DNA from: Polyangia bacterium
GTDB taxonomy: Bacteria > Myxococcota_A > Polyangia > Nannocystales > Nannocystaceae
Reading direction: 5' to 3'
NCBI GenBank assembly: GCA_030429545.1
Contig: JAUIFF010000001.1
Location: 83,599 to 147,598 of the forward strand
DNA length: 64,000 bases
A program made the position numbers and the translations under genes. Positions within the stretch are counted from its first letter, which is position 1. Each line of letters opens with the position of its first letter. Positions 3,283 through 63,386 of this stretch are shown here, one piece after another. The notes beneath the pieces were generated by a model. That model saw only the letters and a list, made by a program, of their open reading frames with translations. It was not told the DNA's origin and ran no database searches.

Positions 3283-5277
3283 CTAGCTCGCGGGCTGCTC
3301 CCCCAGGACCTCGGCCCGCAACTGGGCCAACTCCTCACGGTAGGCTCCGCTCAAAATCGGAAACCGGCACCAGGTTTTGGGGTCGACGTTTTCGTCGTCG
3401 AGGTGAAACGACGGGGCGTAGCGTTCACGCTTCCACTGATTGCGGCTCCATAGCCCGAAAAACCGTTCGATGTAGTGCAGCAATGTCGCCTCGGGGTGGT
3501 CTGGGTATTCGGCGCGCAGGCATTGATAACAGTCGCGCGGTGGCAACTTGTCGCGGACGGCCGCGCGCTCGATCCGGTCTAAAATCGGGTAGGGCATCAG
3601 GTCGCCCTCGTCGGTTTGCTCGGCCTCCGGCGGGCGCAACTCGGCGGTCGGCTGCTGGACATTGATGGCCGTGAGTGCGGGTATGGGGCCCACGCCGATG
3701 GGGCCGGTGGTTTCGAGCCAGCGCAGCCAGGCCAACAAAAATGCCTTGTCGATGCCAGCTATCGGGCTCAGGCCGCCGCAGGTGTCGCCGTCCATCGTCG
3801 CATAGCCAACGGATGCCTCGGAGCGGTTGCTGGTCGCCAGCAGCAGGGCGCGGCGAATGTTGGCCAACATCCACACCCCCGGCGCACGGGCGCGGGCCTG
3901 GATGTTTTGCAGGGCAATATCATCGGTTTCCCAGGTAATGTCGCGCTGTAGTGCCTTGCCGACCATGCCGATGTACTGCTGGACCACGTCGTCGACATCG
4001 AAGGTAAAAAACGCGGCACCGAGGGCTGTAGCCAGCCCGTGGGCGGCATCGCGGGTGGTCTGCGAGCTGTTGCGCGTGGGCTGGTACACACATGCCAGCA
4101 GGCTGTCCATGAGTTGGTCAAACGCAATATCCTGGGGATAGCCGAGGATGTCGGCAACCTTGGCAAGCCCGAGCTCAACACTCGCAAGCCGGATGGAGAG
4201 GTACACGAGGCAGGCAACCGCCGCCGAATCGGCACCGCCGCTGAGCGAGACGACAAACCCTCGCATCCGGCTCTTTCGCAGGTAGTCAAACAGGCCGAGG
4301 GCCGAGGCCCGGGTGAACTCCTCAAACTTCTCGTGTTCACTGCCAAAGATCGGTGCGTGGGGCGGGGTCACCTGGGTTGTTGGCTCGGCCCGGGGAAACG
4401 TAAATTCCCGGTTCAACACGGCCCGGGCGGCATCGTCGACGGCCGGGGTAAAGCTGGTCGTTCGAGCATGTTTCATGCGGTTGGCCGACAGGTCCATGAC
4501 CGCGGTTGTGAGGTACACCGGGGCAAACCCAAACCGCGGGCCGCTGGCCAGCAGGGTCCCGCGGGTGGCGATGAGTGTGTCGCCCCCGTAGATCACCCGA
4601 CCTGCTTCGTTGCCCAAAAGATTTGCATATACATAGGTTGTGCCAAACGCCCGTGAACCCTCGAGCACAAACCGGCGGCGAATCCCGTGGCGGCCAAAGG
4701 CAAAGTGGCTGGCGCTGAGGTTGAGCAAAATATCGGCCCCAGCCGAGGCCAAGCTCCCGCCCGGGCGGTTGGGCACCCAGGCATCCTCGCAAATCTCAAA
4801 CCCGATCCGCAGGCCGCCGACATCAAACACCTGGTCGCCAAGTGGCAACGAGCGACCGGCGTGGCGGAAGGTTGCCAACTTGCCCTCGGGCCAGGGGCGA
4901 AACCACCGGGGTTCGTAGTGAATCCCGTCGCCCGCCAAAAACCGTTTGGCCACCATCCCGGCAAGCGAACCATCGACGATCAACGCAGCCGCGTTGTAAA
5001 CGGCCCCGCGGTGAACAACCGGCAGGCCGAGGGCGACGATCATACCTTCGGTATAGGGCTCGATCGACTCGAGCGAGGCAAACGCCCGGTCCATCACCCC
5101 GTAGCTATGAAACGCATCCTCGCAGCCGTAGCCGGTGATCGACAGCTCCGGCAGGCACAGCAGGGTGATGCCAGCGTTGCGCGCATCGGCGATCGCCTGC
5201 AGGATGTTTTGCCGGTTGTGTTCCCAGGCCATGGGCACCTGGTTGAGGGCAGCGGCCGCGATTCGAATTAAATGCAT
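3283..5277 (-). CDS. nadE: glutamine-dependent NAD+ synthetase (N-terminal CN-hydrolase domain + NadE domain)
   Basis: 664 aa. N-terminal nitrilase-like domain (LLCLPELSITGYGCED) and C-terminal NAD synthetase domain (SLSGGADSAA P-loop). Confidence 0.9.
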   Translation of the reverse strand: MHLIRIAAAALNQVPMAWEHNRQNILQAIADARNAGITLLCLPELSITGYGCEDAFHSYGVMDRAFASLESIEPYTEGMIVALGLPVVHRGAVYNAAALIVDGSLAGMVAKRFLAGDGIHYEPRWFRPWPEGKLATFRHAGRSLPLGDQVFDVGGLRIGFEICEDAWVPNRPGGSLASAGADILLNLSASHFAFGRHGIRRRFVLEGSRAFGTTYVYANLLGNEAGRVIYGGDTLIATRGTLLASGPRFGFAPVYLTTAVMDLSANRMKHARTTSFTPAVDDAARAVLNREFTFPRAEPTTQVTPPHAPIFGSEHEKFEEFTRASALGLFDYLRKSRMRGFVVSLSGGADSAAVACLVYLSIRLASVELGLAKVADILGYPQDIAFDQLMDSLLACVYQPTRNSSQTTRDAAHGLATALGAAFFTFDVDDVVQQYIGMVGKALQRDITWETDDIALQNIQARARAPGVWMLANIRRALLLATSNRSEASVGYATMDGDTCGGLSPIAGIDKAFLLAWLRWLETTGPIGVGPIPALTAINVQQPTAELRPPEAEQTDEGDLMPYPILDRIERAAVRDKLPPRDCYQCLRAEYPDHPEATLLHYIERFFGLWSRNQWKRERYAPSFHLDDENVDPKTWCRFPILSGAYREELAQLRAEVLGEQPAS

Positions 5278-5306
5278 ATGCAGTCTTTCGAGGTTGTCGA
5301 GGGGGC

Positions 5307-6215
5307 TTAAAGGTGCGGCAGCAACAGCGGGGCGACCGACGACACGGTCAGCCCCTGGGGCTCGAGCGCGCGTGCCCGCGGGTGGCTATCACTGGCCACG
5401 ATTTCGCGAAATAGCCCGCTTTGTTGCAGGCGTTCGAGGGCATTGCCGGGCATCAGGCAGTGGGTGGTAATCACCGACAGGCCGCTGGCGCCGGCGGTTT
5501 TGTAGGCCTTGGCGGCGCCGATGAGCGAGCCGCCGGTGCGGATCATGTCGTCGTAGATCACAACTTCGCGACCCTGCACCTGGGCACTGACAGCCGCGAC
5601 TTCGGTGGTCGAACCATCGAGTCGGCGCTTAAACACAAACGCCGGGGTGACGTGCAGATCGTTGGCCAGCGACTCGACCCACTTGGCCCGGCCGGCGTCG
5701 GTACAGGCCAGGACAAAATCATCGCCGCCTATCCGCCGGGCAACCTCGCCGACCATCGGCTTACCGTAGACATGGACTGCCGTAATCTCGCCCTCAAAGT
5801 AGTGGGGAATGCCCTCGCTGTGGAGGTCGAGCATGACGATGCGGTTGCCGTAGCTCGCCGGGGGGATCGCCGAAAACAGCCGCGCCCGAGTCTTTGCAGT
5901 TACAACTTCACCGGGCTTGACCGCGCGTTCCATGGTCGAGTAGGCGTAGTACGGCAGCACCAGGGTGAGTCGCCTGGCCCCGTATTTGACGATCCCGCAG
6001 GCGAGGTCGTAGAGCGTGAGGCTGGCTCGGTCGTCGATGGTGCCACCCACCAGCATGACCTCGCGACCGACGACGTCGCTCACAATCCGGAGGTAGCGCT
6101 CGCCGTCGGGAAAGGTTTTGAGTTCGATCTCGCCGGCCTCAAACCCGCCTAGGCGGCACAACTCAGTTTGTAGGTAGGCATATTCGGGAATGGCAAAGAC
6201 GAGTGGGGCGGGCAT
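5307..6215 (-). CDS. prs: ribose-phosphate pyrophosphokinase (PRPP synthetase) family protein
   Basis: Prs-like motifs (VLVGGTIDD..., [16 protein letters not shown]). Internal ATG at 6215 preceded by a GGAGG RBS is the preferred start, not 6368. Confidence 0.8.
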
Positions 6216-6837
6216 CGATCCTCCGTGGCGTGACCATACCGGCAACTGCAAACAGGGCTCAAGCTGCATACGCCTTGGGGTTGCCCCAAGGTTGCGCGGG
6301 CGGTTTTGGAAAAACCCGACTACGCGTTTTGCGAGATGTCGACGCGGTGGTAGTTGACGCGACTTCACAACGGTTCCCTCGCAAGCACGTGGCCAAGGTA
6401 GCCTGGCAAGGACTTCGCAGGCGCTTGCAAAGGTAGCCTCGCAAACTACGACTTTGGCGCGATGACGGCAGCGGCGACTATTGTGTGGAGTCGTGGGCGG
6501 CAGCGATTGCTGTGCTCGATCACACCGGTCCCTAGGTAGAAGTTAACAAGAAAGTCGCGGTGACGTTCGAGGTTGATATGACCAATCGAGCAGGTTGTTG
6601 ACGGGTTCGCTCAGTCGTTCGCCGGTGTTCCGCCACAGGGTCACCCGATAGCCGGTCTCGCGGCAGCTGCAGCGGTCTCCGAGTTCGCCACGGCAGTAGG
6701 GGCGAGACCCCACGACATTGGCGACCCAACTGGCATTCGCCGTTTGGACCACATCTACGACCGGTTGAGGTCGCGATCTACGGAGGTTTCGCGGTTGCCA
6801 GCTAGACGCCGCGGGACTTGCGGGTTAGTTTGAAAAC

Positions 6838-62590: not shown

Positions 62591-62611
62591 AGGGGGATTT
62601 TAACCCACCTG

Positions 62612-62968
62612 CTACCAGGATCCGTGAGAACCGTGGGAGCCGTGGGAGCCGTGGGAGCCGTGGGAGCCGTGGGAACCGTGGGAGCCGTGAGACCCGTGGG
62701 AGCCGTGAGACCCGTGGGAGCCGTGAGACCCGTGAGACCCGTGAGATCCGTGAGACCCGTGAGACCCGTGAGAACCATGCGAACAGTGGCCCGAGTCCCC
62801 AGGCCCTACCATGACCGTGGTCAGTGACATACTCGCCGGCCCAGCATCGGCGTAGAGTCGGGCCTTGTCGGATATTTCCCGCTGGCCCTTGCTCAGCACT
62901 GGTCCCTTGCGGGTGAACGTCGGGAGAGCGTTCAGATCGTCGGTTGCCTTTCCATCACTCTTCGCCAT
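62612..62968 (-). CDS. His-Gly-Ser repeat precursor peptide (HxsA-like; ~60-aa leader + (HGS)x18)
   Basis: MAKSDGKATDDLNALPTFTRKGPVLSKGQREISDKARLYADAGPASMSLTTVMVGPGDSGHCSHGSHGSH...GSW. Encoded by 9-bp tandem repeats (GGCTCCCAC on the coding strand). GAGGA RBS 7 nt upstream. Confidence 0.7.
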   Translation of the reverse strand: MAKSDGKATDDLNALPTFTRKGPVLSKGQREISDKARLYADAGPASMSLTTVMVGPGDSGHCSHGSHGSHGSHGSHGSHGSHGSHGSHGSHGSHGSHGSHGSHGSHGSHGSHGSHGSW

Positions 62969-63386
62969 AACTCAGTCCTCTGTCCGCGCCGTAATCGCCA
63001 CGCATCCTACCACGGAGCTGTCCAGTGTGAAATCCCGGACAAACCGGCGTTCGTCACGGAACAAGGGTCGTTTTCGACAGTTGCGGCGGGACGACTCTCC
63101 TCAGATAACGCCTGAGATGGGTCTGAGAGCATATTTTCAGGAGAAAGGGCCACTTTCGGTCACTACCCGATGACTGCTCGCCGGAAGATCTAGAAAGGAA
63201 ATTCGCCCAATTGGAGATCCGTAAGGATGCGCCGTTGCCCGCGCCTAGGGGGCACGGACGTGTGTTGGCGAGCGAGTGCACCCGGTCGTCCCCTCCGCTC
63301 GCGGATGCTCACCAACCTAATCAACCCGTTGCGGCCGAGACCAACAACGGGTTGCATGTACAAACGATTGCGCTGCTCTGCGTGAC

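Follow-up and report, generated by a model that had tools for sequence, protein, structure and literature searches.

TGYANNTRCA, a hyper-abundant and lineage-specific dyad word in a Myxococcota genome

The interrupted palindrome TGYA-NN-TRCA is a dyad word that is restricted to one lineage and hyper-abundant in this uncultured, Nannocystaceae-like member of the Myxococcota, with 50 exact sites (0.78/kb) in the 64-kb stretch of DNA analysed here, referred to as the window. Codon usage at the sites and comparison with related genomes show that the force which installed the word and maintains it across the chromosome acts on the DNA itself and not on proteins or RNA. We consider the word best explained as a genome-wide recognition tag similar to HIP1 and USS, bound by a symmetric protein dimer; the function is inferred, and we give this reading a probability of about 0.45. 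It would represent a HIP1- or uptake-sequence-like "genome tag" in a phylum for which we found none described, and no record of the motif itself was found in the literature.

Abundance and form of the word

The word occurs about once per 1.3 kb, or roughly once per gene (Table 1). Dinucleotide shuffles of the window gave an expectation of 2.15 sites with a maximum of 7, and Markov models, which an earlier sequence-only reading of this DNA had proposed at order three or higher for the whole genome, predicted 2.9 (order 3) and 4.9 (order 5) sites; the over-representation is 10- to 23-fold. The massive excess claimed in that reading is thus even stronger than described (50 sites versus 2–5 expected). 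Its count of about 35 sites was too low, its range of 4624–63362 leaves out one preceding site (843), and the GC content of the window is 61.8% instead of ~67%. All 10-mers it listed exist, but eight coordinates were off by 1–9 nt (13144 is 13140, 18409 is 18405, 32303 is 32302, 34231 is 34222, 43856 is 43853, 49071 is 49072, 49547 is 49545 and 50248 is 50247). Its placement of sites at gene boundaries holds for 5273, 36331, 7635, 12457 and 32302, and a start codon is also included in site 8392. Searches of the window gave neither an Rfam family nor a tRNA.

Table 1. Exact TGYANNTRCA sites in the window
Position	Sequence	Context
843..852	TGCATCTACA	CDS 402-959(-), phase 2
4624..4633	TGCATATACA	nadE CDS (-), phase 2; YIYA in outgroups = TAC ATC TAC GCG
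5273..5282	TGCATATGCA	overlaps nadE start codon; conserved in L001
5895..5904	TGCAGTTACA	prs-like CDS (-), phase 2; same VVTA in outgroups = GTC GTC ACG GCC
7635..7644	TGCAGATACA	convergent intergenic gap
8392..8401	TGCATGTGCA	includes epimerase gene ATG start (8395)
9595..9604	TGTACATACA	GST CDS (+), phase 0; conserved in L001
10016..10025	TGCATCTGCA	intergenic, flanked by two + genes
11683..11692	TGTATGTGCA	TPP-enzyme CDS (+), phase 2; conserved in L001; outgroups RECP/QACP, here RVCA
11887..11896	TGCAACTGCA	TPP-enzyme CDS (+), phase 2; same VATA in outgroups = GTC GCC ACC GCG
12457..12466	TGCAGATACA	convergent intergenic gap
13140..13149	TGCAAATACA	penicillin-amidase CDS (-), phase 2
16433..16442	TGCATTTACA	CDS 15765-17117(+), phase 2
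18241..18250	TGTATTTACA	CDS 17264-18865(-), phase 0
18405..18414	TGTATGTGCA	CDS 17264-18865(-), phase 1
19902..19911	TGTAAGTGCA	VanW-like CDS (-), phase 2
20646..20655	TGCATCTGCA	intergenic, flanked by two - genes
21211..21220	TGCATCTGCA	divergent intergenic region
28213..28222	TGTACTTACA	FadL-like CDS (+), phase 2
28910..28919	TGTAGCTGCA	intergenic
29329..29338	TGCAGATACA	CDS (+), phase 2, Ala-Asp-Thr; L001 has same 8 fixed bases, NN = AT instead
30335..30344	TGCAGATACA	ceramidase-like CDS (+), phase 2; conserved in L001
32302..32311	TGTATGTGCA	convergent intergenic gap
34222..34231	TGTATGTGCA	M23 peptidase CDS (+), phase 2
35781..35790	TGCAGATACA	intergenic; conserved in L001
36331..36340	TGCAGATACA	immediately 3' of desaturase stop codon
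38907..38916	TGCATCTACA	DUF1295 CDS (+), phase 2
39801..39810	TGCAAATGCA	Na/Ca exchanger CDS (-), phase 2
41172..41181	TGTAAATACA	FHA/DUF898 CDS (-), phase 2
41727..41736	TGTAGTTACA	FHA/DUF898 CDS (-), phase 2
43240..43249	TGTAGATACA	CDS 42573-43370(-), phase 1
43853..43862	TGCATCTGCA	CDS 43346-43906(+), phase 0
44654..44663	TGCAGATACA	Ser/Thr kinase CDS (+), phase 2
46064..46073	TGCAGGTACA	fabH-like CDS (+), codons 2-5, phase 2
47970..47979	TGTACCTGCA	TrkA CDS (-), phase 2
48282..48291	TGCAAGTGCA	TrkA CDS (-), phase 2
49072..49081	TGCAAATACA	divergent intergenic region
49545..49554	TGCAAGTACA	CDS 49239-49634(+), phase 0
49824..49833	TGCAGCTGCA	CDS 49683-49988(+), phase 0
50247..50256	TGCAAGTACA	CDS 49981-50550(+), phase 2
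51789..51798	TGTAGCTGCA	kinase CDS (-), phase 1
52142..52151	TGTACCTGCA	kinase CDS (-), phase 2
52778..52787	TGCATCTGCA	kinase CDS (-), phase 2
54553..54562	TGTACCTACA	CDS 54355-55431(-), phase 2
54893..54902	TGCACATGCA	CDS 54355-55431(-), phase 1
56185..56194	TGCATGTGCA	ferredoxin-reductase CDS (+), phase 1
57262..57271	TGCAAGTACA	MerR CDS (+), phase 1
60517..60526	TGCATATACA	P450 CDS (-), phase 2
60985..60994	TGCAAATGCA	P450 CDS (-), phase 2
63353..63362	TGCATGTACA	intergenic

Comparison of spacers and arrangements confined the enrichment to a 2-bp spacer and inverted half-sites, and in an unbiased dyad scan the word ranked first (p = 6e-24), while the opposite arrangement, TACA-NN-TGTA, was not enriched (1 observed versus ~0.3 expected). 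An excess of one-mismatch variants, which had been described in general terms, exists only at positions 4 and 7 (67 observed versus ~22–27 expected), with all other positions at background level, as are double variants at positions 4/7 (51 versus 54 expected). Beyond the word, A at -7, A at -6 and T at +15 are each present in 24 of 50 sites in unsymmetrised data (P = 4e-6) and T at -1 in 26, whereas C at -1 and G at +10 are avoided, with 3/50 sites each; lone half-sites showed none of these preferences. In full, the element is symmetric and spans ~24 bp, AAWH-NN-T-TGYA-NN-TRCA-A-NN-DWTT.

The spacing of the 50 sites is Poisson-like (CV 0.93), with no sign in the 64 kb of selection for even coverage. 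Identical 10-mers recur on the same strand, forming 47 same-orientation pairs versus 5 reverse-complement pairs, a ratio reached by none of 20,000 random flips, and TGCAGATACA is present in seven copies versus none of its reverse complement. This asymmetry was unexpected and is not explicable by a symmetric dimer; like the spacing, it speaks against a tag.

Coding sequence and related genomes

Coding sequence holds 37 sites versus 5.5 +/- 1.3 expected from synonymous-codon shuffling, and 26 of these lie in the frame nnT-GYA-NNT-RCA (P = 5e-6), a bias that minimises the cost to the protein. The word is carried by 26 of 422 frame-2 peptide contexts, versus 0.19 expected from codon usage. As the sequence-only reading had proposed, the codons involved are rare (GCA 14% of Ala, GTA 5% of Val and ACA 14% of Thr codons); the peptide Ala-Asp-Thr does recur, although in three genes and not four, the fourth having Ala-Asp-Ala and a fifth Val-Asp-Ala. 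In outgroups the same peptides are written with GC-ending codons, for instance GTC GTC ACG GCC for GTT GTA ACT GCA here and GTC GCC ACC GCG for GTT GCA ACT GCA, and sites therefore arose via up to four coordinated synonymous changes. Two sites even needed amino-acid replacements.

The closest relative, L001 (~78% nucleotide identity), carries the word at 0.58/kb, compared with 0–0.05/kb in sister lineages (72% GC), at most 0.09/kb in 40 unrelated loci, each 10 kb or longer, and 0.024/kb in 850 kb from 80 other bacteria; it was not abundant in any of the GC-matched genomes compared. In this one genome pair, 6 of 11 alignable sites are kept in L001 versus 1.29 expected (4.7 times background, P = 7e-4), and wobble identity is 0.78 inside sites versus 0.38 for A/T wobble positions generally.

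Candidate explanations

Strict dyad geometry, additive half-site tolerance and symmetric flanks fit protein recognition, and the word is probably recognised by the symmetric dimer of a sequence-specific protein. Each subunit would contact one TGYA half-site, helped by bendable A/T-tract shoulders; TGYA would act as a strong and TGYG as a weak half-site, of which one but not two may be tolerated. The Y at position 3 may reflect contact with the 5-methyl group common to T and 5-methyl-C, in which case a TGCA-specific m5C methyltransferase would be expected as its partner. Neither a reader protein nor a DNA methyltransferase or competence gene was found in the 64-kb window. Such a tag might serve self-DNA recognition or nucleoid organisation; our leading, still tentative suggestion by analogy with HIP1 and uptake sequences is that the machinery of uptake or recombination uses it to recognise conspecific ("self") DNA. 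It could then spread by molecular drive or selection, because tag-bearing DNA would be preferentially taken up or recombined.

The word might instead be a by-product without function of a neutral repair or conversion ratchet, as in Elhai's model of HIP, in which a methyltransferase would recognise the word and coupled mismatch or very-short-patch repair would turn near-matches into full sites. Interrupted palindromes with Y/R degeneracy resemble Type II methyltransferase or endonuclease specificities, and this form fits a ratchet, as do the Poisson-like spacing and the near-equal half-sites TGCA and TGTA (57:43), which differ by exactly the C-to-T change of m5C deamination. The 10-mer asymmetry, too, would arise more readily if a strand-specific process at the replication fork were at work than if a homodimer bound the sites. 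We nevertheless regard the ratchet as unlikely: the repair-driven effects that we know of (Dcm/Vsr on CCWGG) stay below 2-fold, symmetric A/T-tract flanks 6–8 bp beyond the word would not follow from a ratchet driven by a methyltransferase, the window lacks a gene for one, and sites were built from 4/8-mismatch sequences, non-synonymous changes included, which should be rare if only near-matches convert. Enrichment of one-mismatch neighbours at particular positions was taken to indicate a methyltransferase core in HIP1 (PMC4390886), and a pattern of this kind is seen here; however, there is no smaller embedded core, and double variants are at background. Rather improbable, too, is a clade-specific nucleoid-associated or chromosome-organising protein whose sites are selected for chromosome-wide density and not for uptake, the type of function that Xu et al. 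reportedly favoured for HIP1. A DNA-bending dimer would suit the geometry, the shoulders, the half-site additivity and the above-background retention, density is alike in genes with (0.66/kb) and without (0.62/kb) a Pfam hit, and sites in gaps occur in convergent, divergent and tandem arrangements alike, with no preference for promoters. Against it, spacing is not regular within 64 kb, a homodimer leaves the strand asymmetry unexplained, and the nucleoid proteins known to us have degenerate sites and do not drive a 20-fold excess of an exact word, with 8 of 10 bases fixed, that goes as far as recoding proteins.

It is highly improbable that the sites are operators of a transcription factor whose regulon is very large. 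Intergenic DNA, 11.5% of the sequence, does hold 13 of the 50 sites (2.3-fold enrichment, P = 0.004), start codons are overlapped at 5273 and 8392, and the winged-helix repressors CopY, BlaI and MecI use 4-2-4 dyads. However, 74% of sites are intragenic, at every relative position in genes, three intergenic ones lie in convergent gaps, which have no promoters, the inverse dyad preferred by such repressors is not enriched, and about one site per gene far exceeds any regulon. We give still less credence to the idea that base composition, codon usage or favoured peptides produced the excess as an artefact, or that the sites are relics of a dispersed mobile element (MITE or REP), even if the frame bias and recurring peptides such as Ala-Asp-Thr might point to selection on proteins. 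The excess survives order-5 Markov and synonymous-shuffle nulls, GC-matched genomes lack the motif, the constituent codons are rare, all three frames and intergenic DNA are used, and outgroups keep the peptide and not the word. The flanks share only weak A/T preferences, and the sites are therefore not copies of one element; together these controls refute this reading.

Comparison with known systems

REP/BIME and MITEs are also dispersed palindromic repeats, but they are extragenic copies of one element of 20–150 bp, whereas here mostly intragenic sites have eight bases and weak flanks in common. Chi, KOPS and AIMS are short words that likewise occur in excess and are recognised by machines acting on DNA, and the strand bias of specific 10-mers is reminiscent of their skew; they are non-palindromic and function in one orientation only, whereas TGYANNTRCA is a perfect dyad whose enrichment is tied to its symmetry. 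CopY/BlaI/MecI operators, the TACAnnTGTA "cop box" bound by winged-helix repressors, have the same 4-2-4 geometry and TGTA/TACA-type half-sites in the opposite arrangement, and illustrate that half-sites with centres 6 bp apart are within reach of a winged-helix dimer; they are, however, single operators and not present in thousands of copies.

A further comparison is with DNA uptake sequences, namely the Pasteurellaceae USS (AAGTGCGGT with T-tracts) and the Neisseriaceae DUS. The USS has a 9-bp core with flanking T-tracts, occurs about once per kb, is frame-biased and lies to 65% in ORFs (PMC3458573, PMC2817400), with 1,471 copies in H. influenzae (PMC2817400, PMC3458573, PMC3630211). Both families share with TGYANNTRCA the density of ~1/kb, the location mostly in ORFs with reading-frame bias, the higher density in intergenic DNA, a strict core flanked by weak A/T tracts, restriction to lineages at the level of families ("dialects") and accumulation by point substitution after divergence (PMC2817400, PMC3458573, PMC3630211). 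They are non-palindromic and their coding copies correlate with preferred codons, while our word is palindromic and forces rare ones, which argues against an uptake tag. DUS also form frequent inverted pairs in terminators, none of which were seen here, and for USS/DUS uptake bias and a receptor (e.g. ComP) are experimentally established.

HIP1 (GCGATCGC) and the alternative HIPs (GGGATCCC, CAGGCCTG, TCGATCGA) of cyanobacteria are likewise among the closest known systems. HIP1 is a contiguous GC-rich octamer with mismatch tolerance at outer positions and a reported periodicity of 10–90 kb, whereas the word described here, from a 64-kb window of a myxococcotal genome, is a 10-bp interrupted degenerate 4-2-4 word that tolerates mismatches at inner positions and has symmetric A/T-tract flanks. 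Being AT-rich in a GC-rich genome, it forces rare codons, unlike HIP1, and we know of no cognate methyltransferase, again unlike HIP1. Selection conserves HIP1 (PMC5861425), for which a role as a signal in uptake or transformation has now been proposed (10.1101/2024.09.10.611283; 10.64898/2026.06.24.733823). HIP function is still debated (PMC5861425, PMC4390886). HIPs are short palindromes, 15- to 300-fold over-represented at about one per gene, and TGYANNTRCA is likewise a short palindrome at that frequency; common to both are presence in coding and non-coding DNA, variation of the word by lineage, retention between genomes beyond codon-level expectation, and enrichment of one-mismatch variants at particular positions. 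The proposal of a HIP1-like iterated palindrome or pervasive recognition site, assignable to no known system, is therefore supported, as all HIP-type properties testable here were found: over-representation, about one site per gene, coding and non-coding location, frame bias, retention above background and restriction to one lineage.

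Abundance and anatomy of the palindrome TGYA-NN-TRCA

An exact search of the 64,000-bp window returned 50 matches to TGYANNTRCA (0.78 per kb), compared with 2.15 ± 1.49 sites (maximum 7) expected from dinucleotide-preserving shuffles and 2.1, 2.9 and 4.9 sites expected from Markov simulations of order 1, 3 and 5, respectively. This 10- to 23-fold excess confirms the over-represented palindrome proposed in the sequence-only reading. The count of about 35 sites given there was too low and the GC content of about 67% too high (61.8% in the window), and while the description of the sites it listed otherwise holds, eight of their coordinates were off by 1-9 nt. 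Maximal-order k-mer statistics are uninformative for a gapped word. In an unbiased scan of all dyads of the type 4-mer-N(0-12)-4-mer, TGCA-N2-TACA ranked first (p = 6e-24), and the other top dyads were tandem-repeat artefacts or shifted copies of the same word. The word is self-complementary, and its enrichment is confined to the inverted arrangement, comprising the half-site pairs TGCA..TACA (20), TGCA..TGCA (14), TGTA..TGCA (9) and TGTA..TACA (7). Direct or everted combinations gave 0-2 matches in the window, and the same half-sites separated by 0, 1 or 3-12 bp gave 0-5 matches each, which corresponds to background. Regular spacing was rejected within the 64-kb window, where the distances between sites are Poisson-like (CV 0.93). 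Literature searches with the motif string, myxobacterial iterated palindromes and sample accessions found no record of the motif, and it is absent from the 2017 spaced-motif catalogue.

Positions T1, G2, C9 and A10 as well as Y3 and R8 of the decamer are strict, with single substitutions at each of them at background in the window. Change was tolerated only at the inner positions 4 and 7, mostly as transitions (TGYG..TRCA, 21 vs 4.2 expected; TGYA..CRCA, 14 vs 3.4), and variants altered at both positions were again at background (51 vs 54 expected). By the latter result the word has no smaller embedded core, and TGY-N4-RCA was rejected on this ground. Additive binding to two half-sites, in which one weak half-site is accepted and two are not, would be expected to give the observed tolerance.

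Outside the decamer, A at -7, A at -6 and T at +15 were each present at 24 of the 50 sites (P = 4e-6; negative numbers precede the decamer, numbers from +10 onward follow it), and T at +16 also belongs to these A/T preferences. Position -1 is T in 26 sites and depleted of C (3/50), position +10 is A in 21 and depleted of G (3/50), and positions -4 and +13 are depleted of G and C, respectively. The preferences are symmetric, position-specific and visible in the unsymmetrised data, and 352 lone TGYA half-sites had flat flanks. Both observations make a dyad of approximately 24 bp, AAWH-NN-T-TGYA-NN-TRCA-A-NN-DWTT, the functional unit. Beyond the A/T preferences no sequence was common to the flanks, and therefore the sites are not copies of one element. 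A likeness of T-TGCA to the sigma-54 -12/-24 elements was dropped because GG was not enriched at -11/-10.

Coding context, retention and lineage distribution

The window carries ordinary myxobacterial housekeeping and signalling genes, including nadE, a prs-like gene, sthA, fabH and genes for a TPP enzyme, a penicillin amidase, a FadL-like protein, a desaturase, two Ser/Thr kinases, a P450 and a MerR regulator; the genes of these 64 kb include none for a DNA methyltransferase, a nuclease or competence. Thirty-seven of the 50 sites (74%) lie inside ORFs, at least one site is present in 29 of the 53 ORFs, and site density is equal in ORFs with and without a Pfam match. The other 13 sites lie between genes or at gene edges. 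Intergenic DNA accounts for 11.5% of the sequence and is 2.3-fold enriched in sites (P = 0.004), which are spread over convergent (three sites), divergent and tandem gaps alike.

The frame nnT-GYA-NNT-RCA (frame 2) is used by 26 of the 37 ORF sites (P = 5e-6); it places four of the eight fixed bases at wobble positions, and its only peptide cost is x-[A/V]-x-[T/A]. The codons GCA, GTA and ACA are rare in the window (14%, 5% and 14% of their families). When synonymous codons were shuffled within each gene, 5.5 ± 1.3 sites resulted vs 37 observed, and 26 of the 422 peptide contexts that could accommodate the frame-2 word carry it, compared with 0.19 expected from codon usage. Motif-free outgroups encode the Prs peptide VVTA by GTC GTC ACG GCC and the TPP enzyme peptide VATA by GTC GCC ACC GCG, and the window uses GTT GTA ACT GCA and GTT GCA ACT GCA, which means four coordinated synonymous changes per site from GC-ending codons to the word. 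Two other sites required amino-acid replacements (I to V; E to V and P to A). Because the outgroups keep the peptides with GC-ending codons and some sites came with replacements, peptide and codon explanations are excluded, and a codon or peptide artefact was likewise rejected by the synonymous shuffling. The substitutions show a force strong enough to override weak protein constraint.

The closest genome match, the locus L001 of an uncultured Nannocystaceae MAG (82% amino-acid and ~78% nucleotide identity, 61% GC), contains 13 sites in 22.6 kb (0.58 per kb). In 16.9 kb of alignable sequence with 78.2% identity, this relative has kept six of 11 window sites vs 1.29 expected from background retention of those eight positions, matched for frame (P = 7e-4; 11 sites, one genome pair). 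Wobble identity between the two genomes was 78% inside frame-2 sites and 38% at A/T wobble positions generally, and at site 29329 the eight fixed bases are retained in the relative with the NN altered. The next relatives by NadE, GCA_030430565.1 and GCA_041389865.1 (67-68% identical, both 72% GC), have 0-1 sites in 22 kb, and two Polyangiaceae loci have none. Eighty loci from other bacteria, 850 kb in total, contained 0.024 sites per kb, equal to the control-spacer level, and 0.09 per kb was not exceeded, at any GC content, by any of 40 further loci with a length of 10 kb or more. The presence of sites in the window and in its closest relative and their near-absence in sisters and controls mean that the tag arose in a single lineage. 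A metagenome scan for more of this genome returned only relatives of at most 63% identity. TGYANNTRCA is shown to be a genuine, lineage-specific tag whose action is at the DNA level; it has dyad symmetry, its half-sites are additive and its flanks are prone to bending.

The motif-bearing lineage has a GC content of ~62% vs 72% in its nearest sisters, and the appearance of the tag coincides with this drop of ~10 points (window vs the sister loci L085 and L086). The palindromic octamers CGTCGACG and GCTCGAGC occur at 0.9-1.1 per kb in these two sister loci. A separate hyper-abundant 'dialect' of the sisters was rejected, as unrelated genomes of 69-75% GC also reach 0.2-0.7 per kb, about half the sister level. 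For this reason, the abundance of both octamers is probably mostly a codon-usage effect of GC-rich genomes, a weak 'dialect' being less likely.

Strand orientation, repeats and rearrangement

Seven copies of TGCAGATACA stand against none of its reverse complement TGTATCTGCA, and TGCATCTGCA, TGTATGTGCA and TGCAAGTACA occur five, four and three times in the window without a reverse complement. Pairs of identical 10-mers on the + strand were co-oriented in 47 cases and reverse-complement in five, a ratio reached by 0 of 20,000 random strand flips. The co-orientation is independent of transcription, given that three copies of TGCAGATACA lie in + genes, two in convergent gaps and two between - genes. 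All along the window, which represents one replichore only, the + strand appears to be the leading strand. Sites present only in L001 had the same orientation in four cases and the opposite in three, small numbers that lend the asymmetry no support. Since a homodimer is blind to orientation, either the sites are generated in a strand-specific way or their recognition departs from full symmetry; the co-orientation could be a sign of a replication-strand-linked process.

Neither an Rfam family nor a tRNA was found by scanning the window. Its side features are summarized in the table. The degenerate tandem array is responsible for an anomaly in GC-skew (+0.17) and AT-skew (-0.24) at 24-28 kb. The small SAM methyltransferase is the only methyltransferase-like ORF of the 64 kb and was rejected as a DNA methyltransferase, being of a generic small-molecule/rRNA type. 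A rearrangement breakpoint at L001 9815-10124 corresponds to window positions 14993 and 28971, where L001 joins the orthologues of 28971-38374 to those of 14993-4574 (inverted). Short-read (Logan) contigs of the source sample break at repeats in the window, including the 9-nt repeat.

Side features of the window
Feature	Position	Strand	Description
Stretch separating two L001-syntenic blocks	14993-28971		contains the longest motif-free gap
Longest motif-free gap	21221-28212		7.0 kb vs mean 1.28 kb; sthA, hypothetical ORFs, tandem array, small SAM methyltransferase
Degenerate tandem array	24362-25143		~800 bp, G/T-rich on + strand; units ~18-24 nt (e.g. GTTTGGGTAGCGCGGGC), higher-order periods 70 and 106 nt; overlying ORFs without Pfam match, no Rfam match
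Small SAM methyltransferase ORF	25260-26321		RrnaAD/Methyltransf_25
15-nt in-frame tandem repeat	35161-35299		9.3 copies; ORF 34722-35588, no Pfam match
42-nt in-frame tandem repeat	41771-41949		4.3 copies, 96% identical; FHA/DUF898 protein
Collagen-like Gly-X-Y ORF	62612-62968	-	Pfam Collagen, 7.8e-9; adjoins radical-SAM gene
9-nt tandem repeat	62622-62773		17 copies; in the collagen-like ORF

Candidate functions and likeness to known systems

The leading hypothesis, to which we assign a probability of about 0.3-0.35, is that the word marks self-DNA for uptake or recombination and spreads by drive or selection, in analogy to known uptake signals. A sequence-specific protein probably reads the word as a symmetric dimer. 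The operators TACAnnTGTA of CopY, BlaI and MecI illustrate that a dimer is able to read 4-2-4 dyads; this arrangement is not enriched in the window. That TGCA and TGTA half-sites are almost equally frequent (57:43) raises the idea that the reader may contact the 5-methyl group common to T and m5C; a TGCA m5C methyltransferase would then be implied. It is a rather speculative extension that a genome-wide 'self' tag evolved recently in the lineage itself, following the split from the sisters with ~68% NadE identity, as a palindromic uptake/recombination signal with a dimeric reader and possibly with T equivalent to 5-methyl-C at position 3. If true, it would have no earlier counterpart outside Pasteurellaceae, Neisseriaceae and Cyanobacteria, and together with the 10-mer co-orientation it would mean that the generation or reading of sites depends on the replication strand, for which we know of no precedent in HIP1 or USS.

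The dyad with its bend-prone flanks could also be the site of a nucleoid or architecture protein, which we consider unlikely. It is improbable as well that the word is a functionless by-product of a ratchet of methyltransferase and repair. Regulon operators are located in promoter regions upstream of genes, whereas 37 of the 50 window sites are in CDS and three in convergent gaps; the operator of a giant regulon is poorly supported and very improbable. REP and MITE elements form extragenic copies with extended shared sequence and a hairpin, in contrast to the window sites, which are 74% intragenic with unrelated flanks. A MITE or REP origin was rejected on these grounds, and an artefact or mobile-element origin is effectively excluded. 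A gene-content difference between motif-bearing and motif-free clades could reveal a reader or writer protein, and the young age of the tag lets selection be separated from molecular drive. Furthermore, the word is a precise lineage marker in metagenomes and is likely relevant to genetic manipulation, e.g. when included or premethylated in transforming DNA.

HIP1 is a palindrome with 15- to 300-fold enrichment that is conserved by selection and whose core is linked to a methyltransferase (PMC5861425, PMC4390886); it reportedly increases transformation in a way that depends on methylation and was proposed to be an uptake signal (10.1101/2024.09.10.611283; 10.64898/2026.06.24.733823). The window word shares with the highly iterated palindromes (HIP) the palindromy of a short oligomer, the abundance (at least ~15-fold enrichment and ~1 per gene in coding and non-coding DNA; 10- to 23-fold here) and the retention between relatives above control (6/11 vs 1.29, one genome pair). 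However, HIP1 is a contiguous, GC-rich octamer of cyanobacteria (GCGATCGC or a closely similar variant), and the window word an AT-rich interrupted decamer of a Nannocystaceae-like myxobacterium. A HIP word would be expected to have a cognate (orphan) DNA methyltransferase for the word or its core and a 10-90 kb periodic distribution; the 64 kb of the window encode no DNA methyltransferase, and the local spacing in them is Poisson-like. To our knowledge, HIP1 has been reported from cyanobacteria only, and it is only now, after 30 years, that its function is being linked to transformation.

The uptake sequences USS and DUS occur about once per kb, combine a strict core with A/T tracts, lie mostly in ORFs with a frame bias and form lineage dialects (PMC2817400, PMC3458573, PMC3630211). 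The window word resembles them as a lineage-specific word in the range of these 9-12-mers (0.78 per kb, and 0.58 per kb in L001) and has the same layout of a strict core with weak A/T tracts as USS. In contrast, USS and DUS are non-palindromic and occur in both orientations, whereas the window word is a dyad. DNA bearing USS or DUS is preferentially taken up by competent cells, with a specific receptor. Chi and KOPS words are non-palindromic with a replication-oriented strand bias; the degenerate window word is palindromic, yet its identical 10-mers are co-oriented (47 vs 5 on one replichore; 4:3 in L001). The word is best classified as a genome-wide word of the HIP/USS kind in a new variant. 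HIP1, USS and DUS are among the oldest genome signatures without a full explanation, and an independent, recently arisen analogue in Myxococcota, with motif-free sisters and a close motif-bearing lineage, offers a natural comparison.
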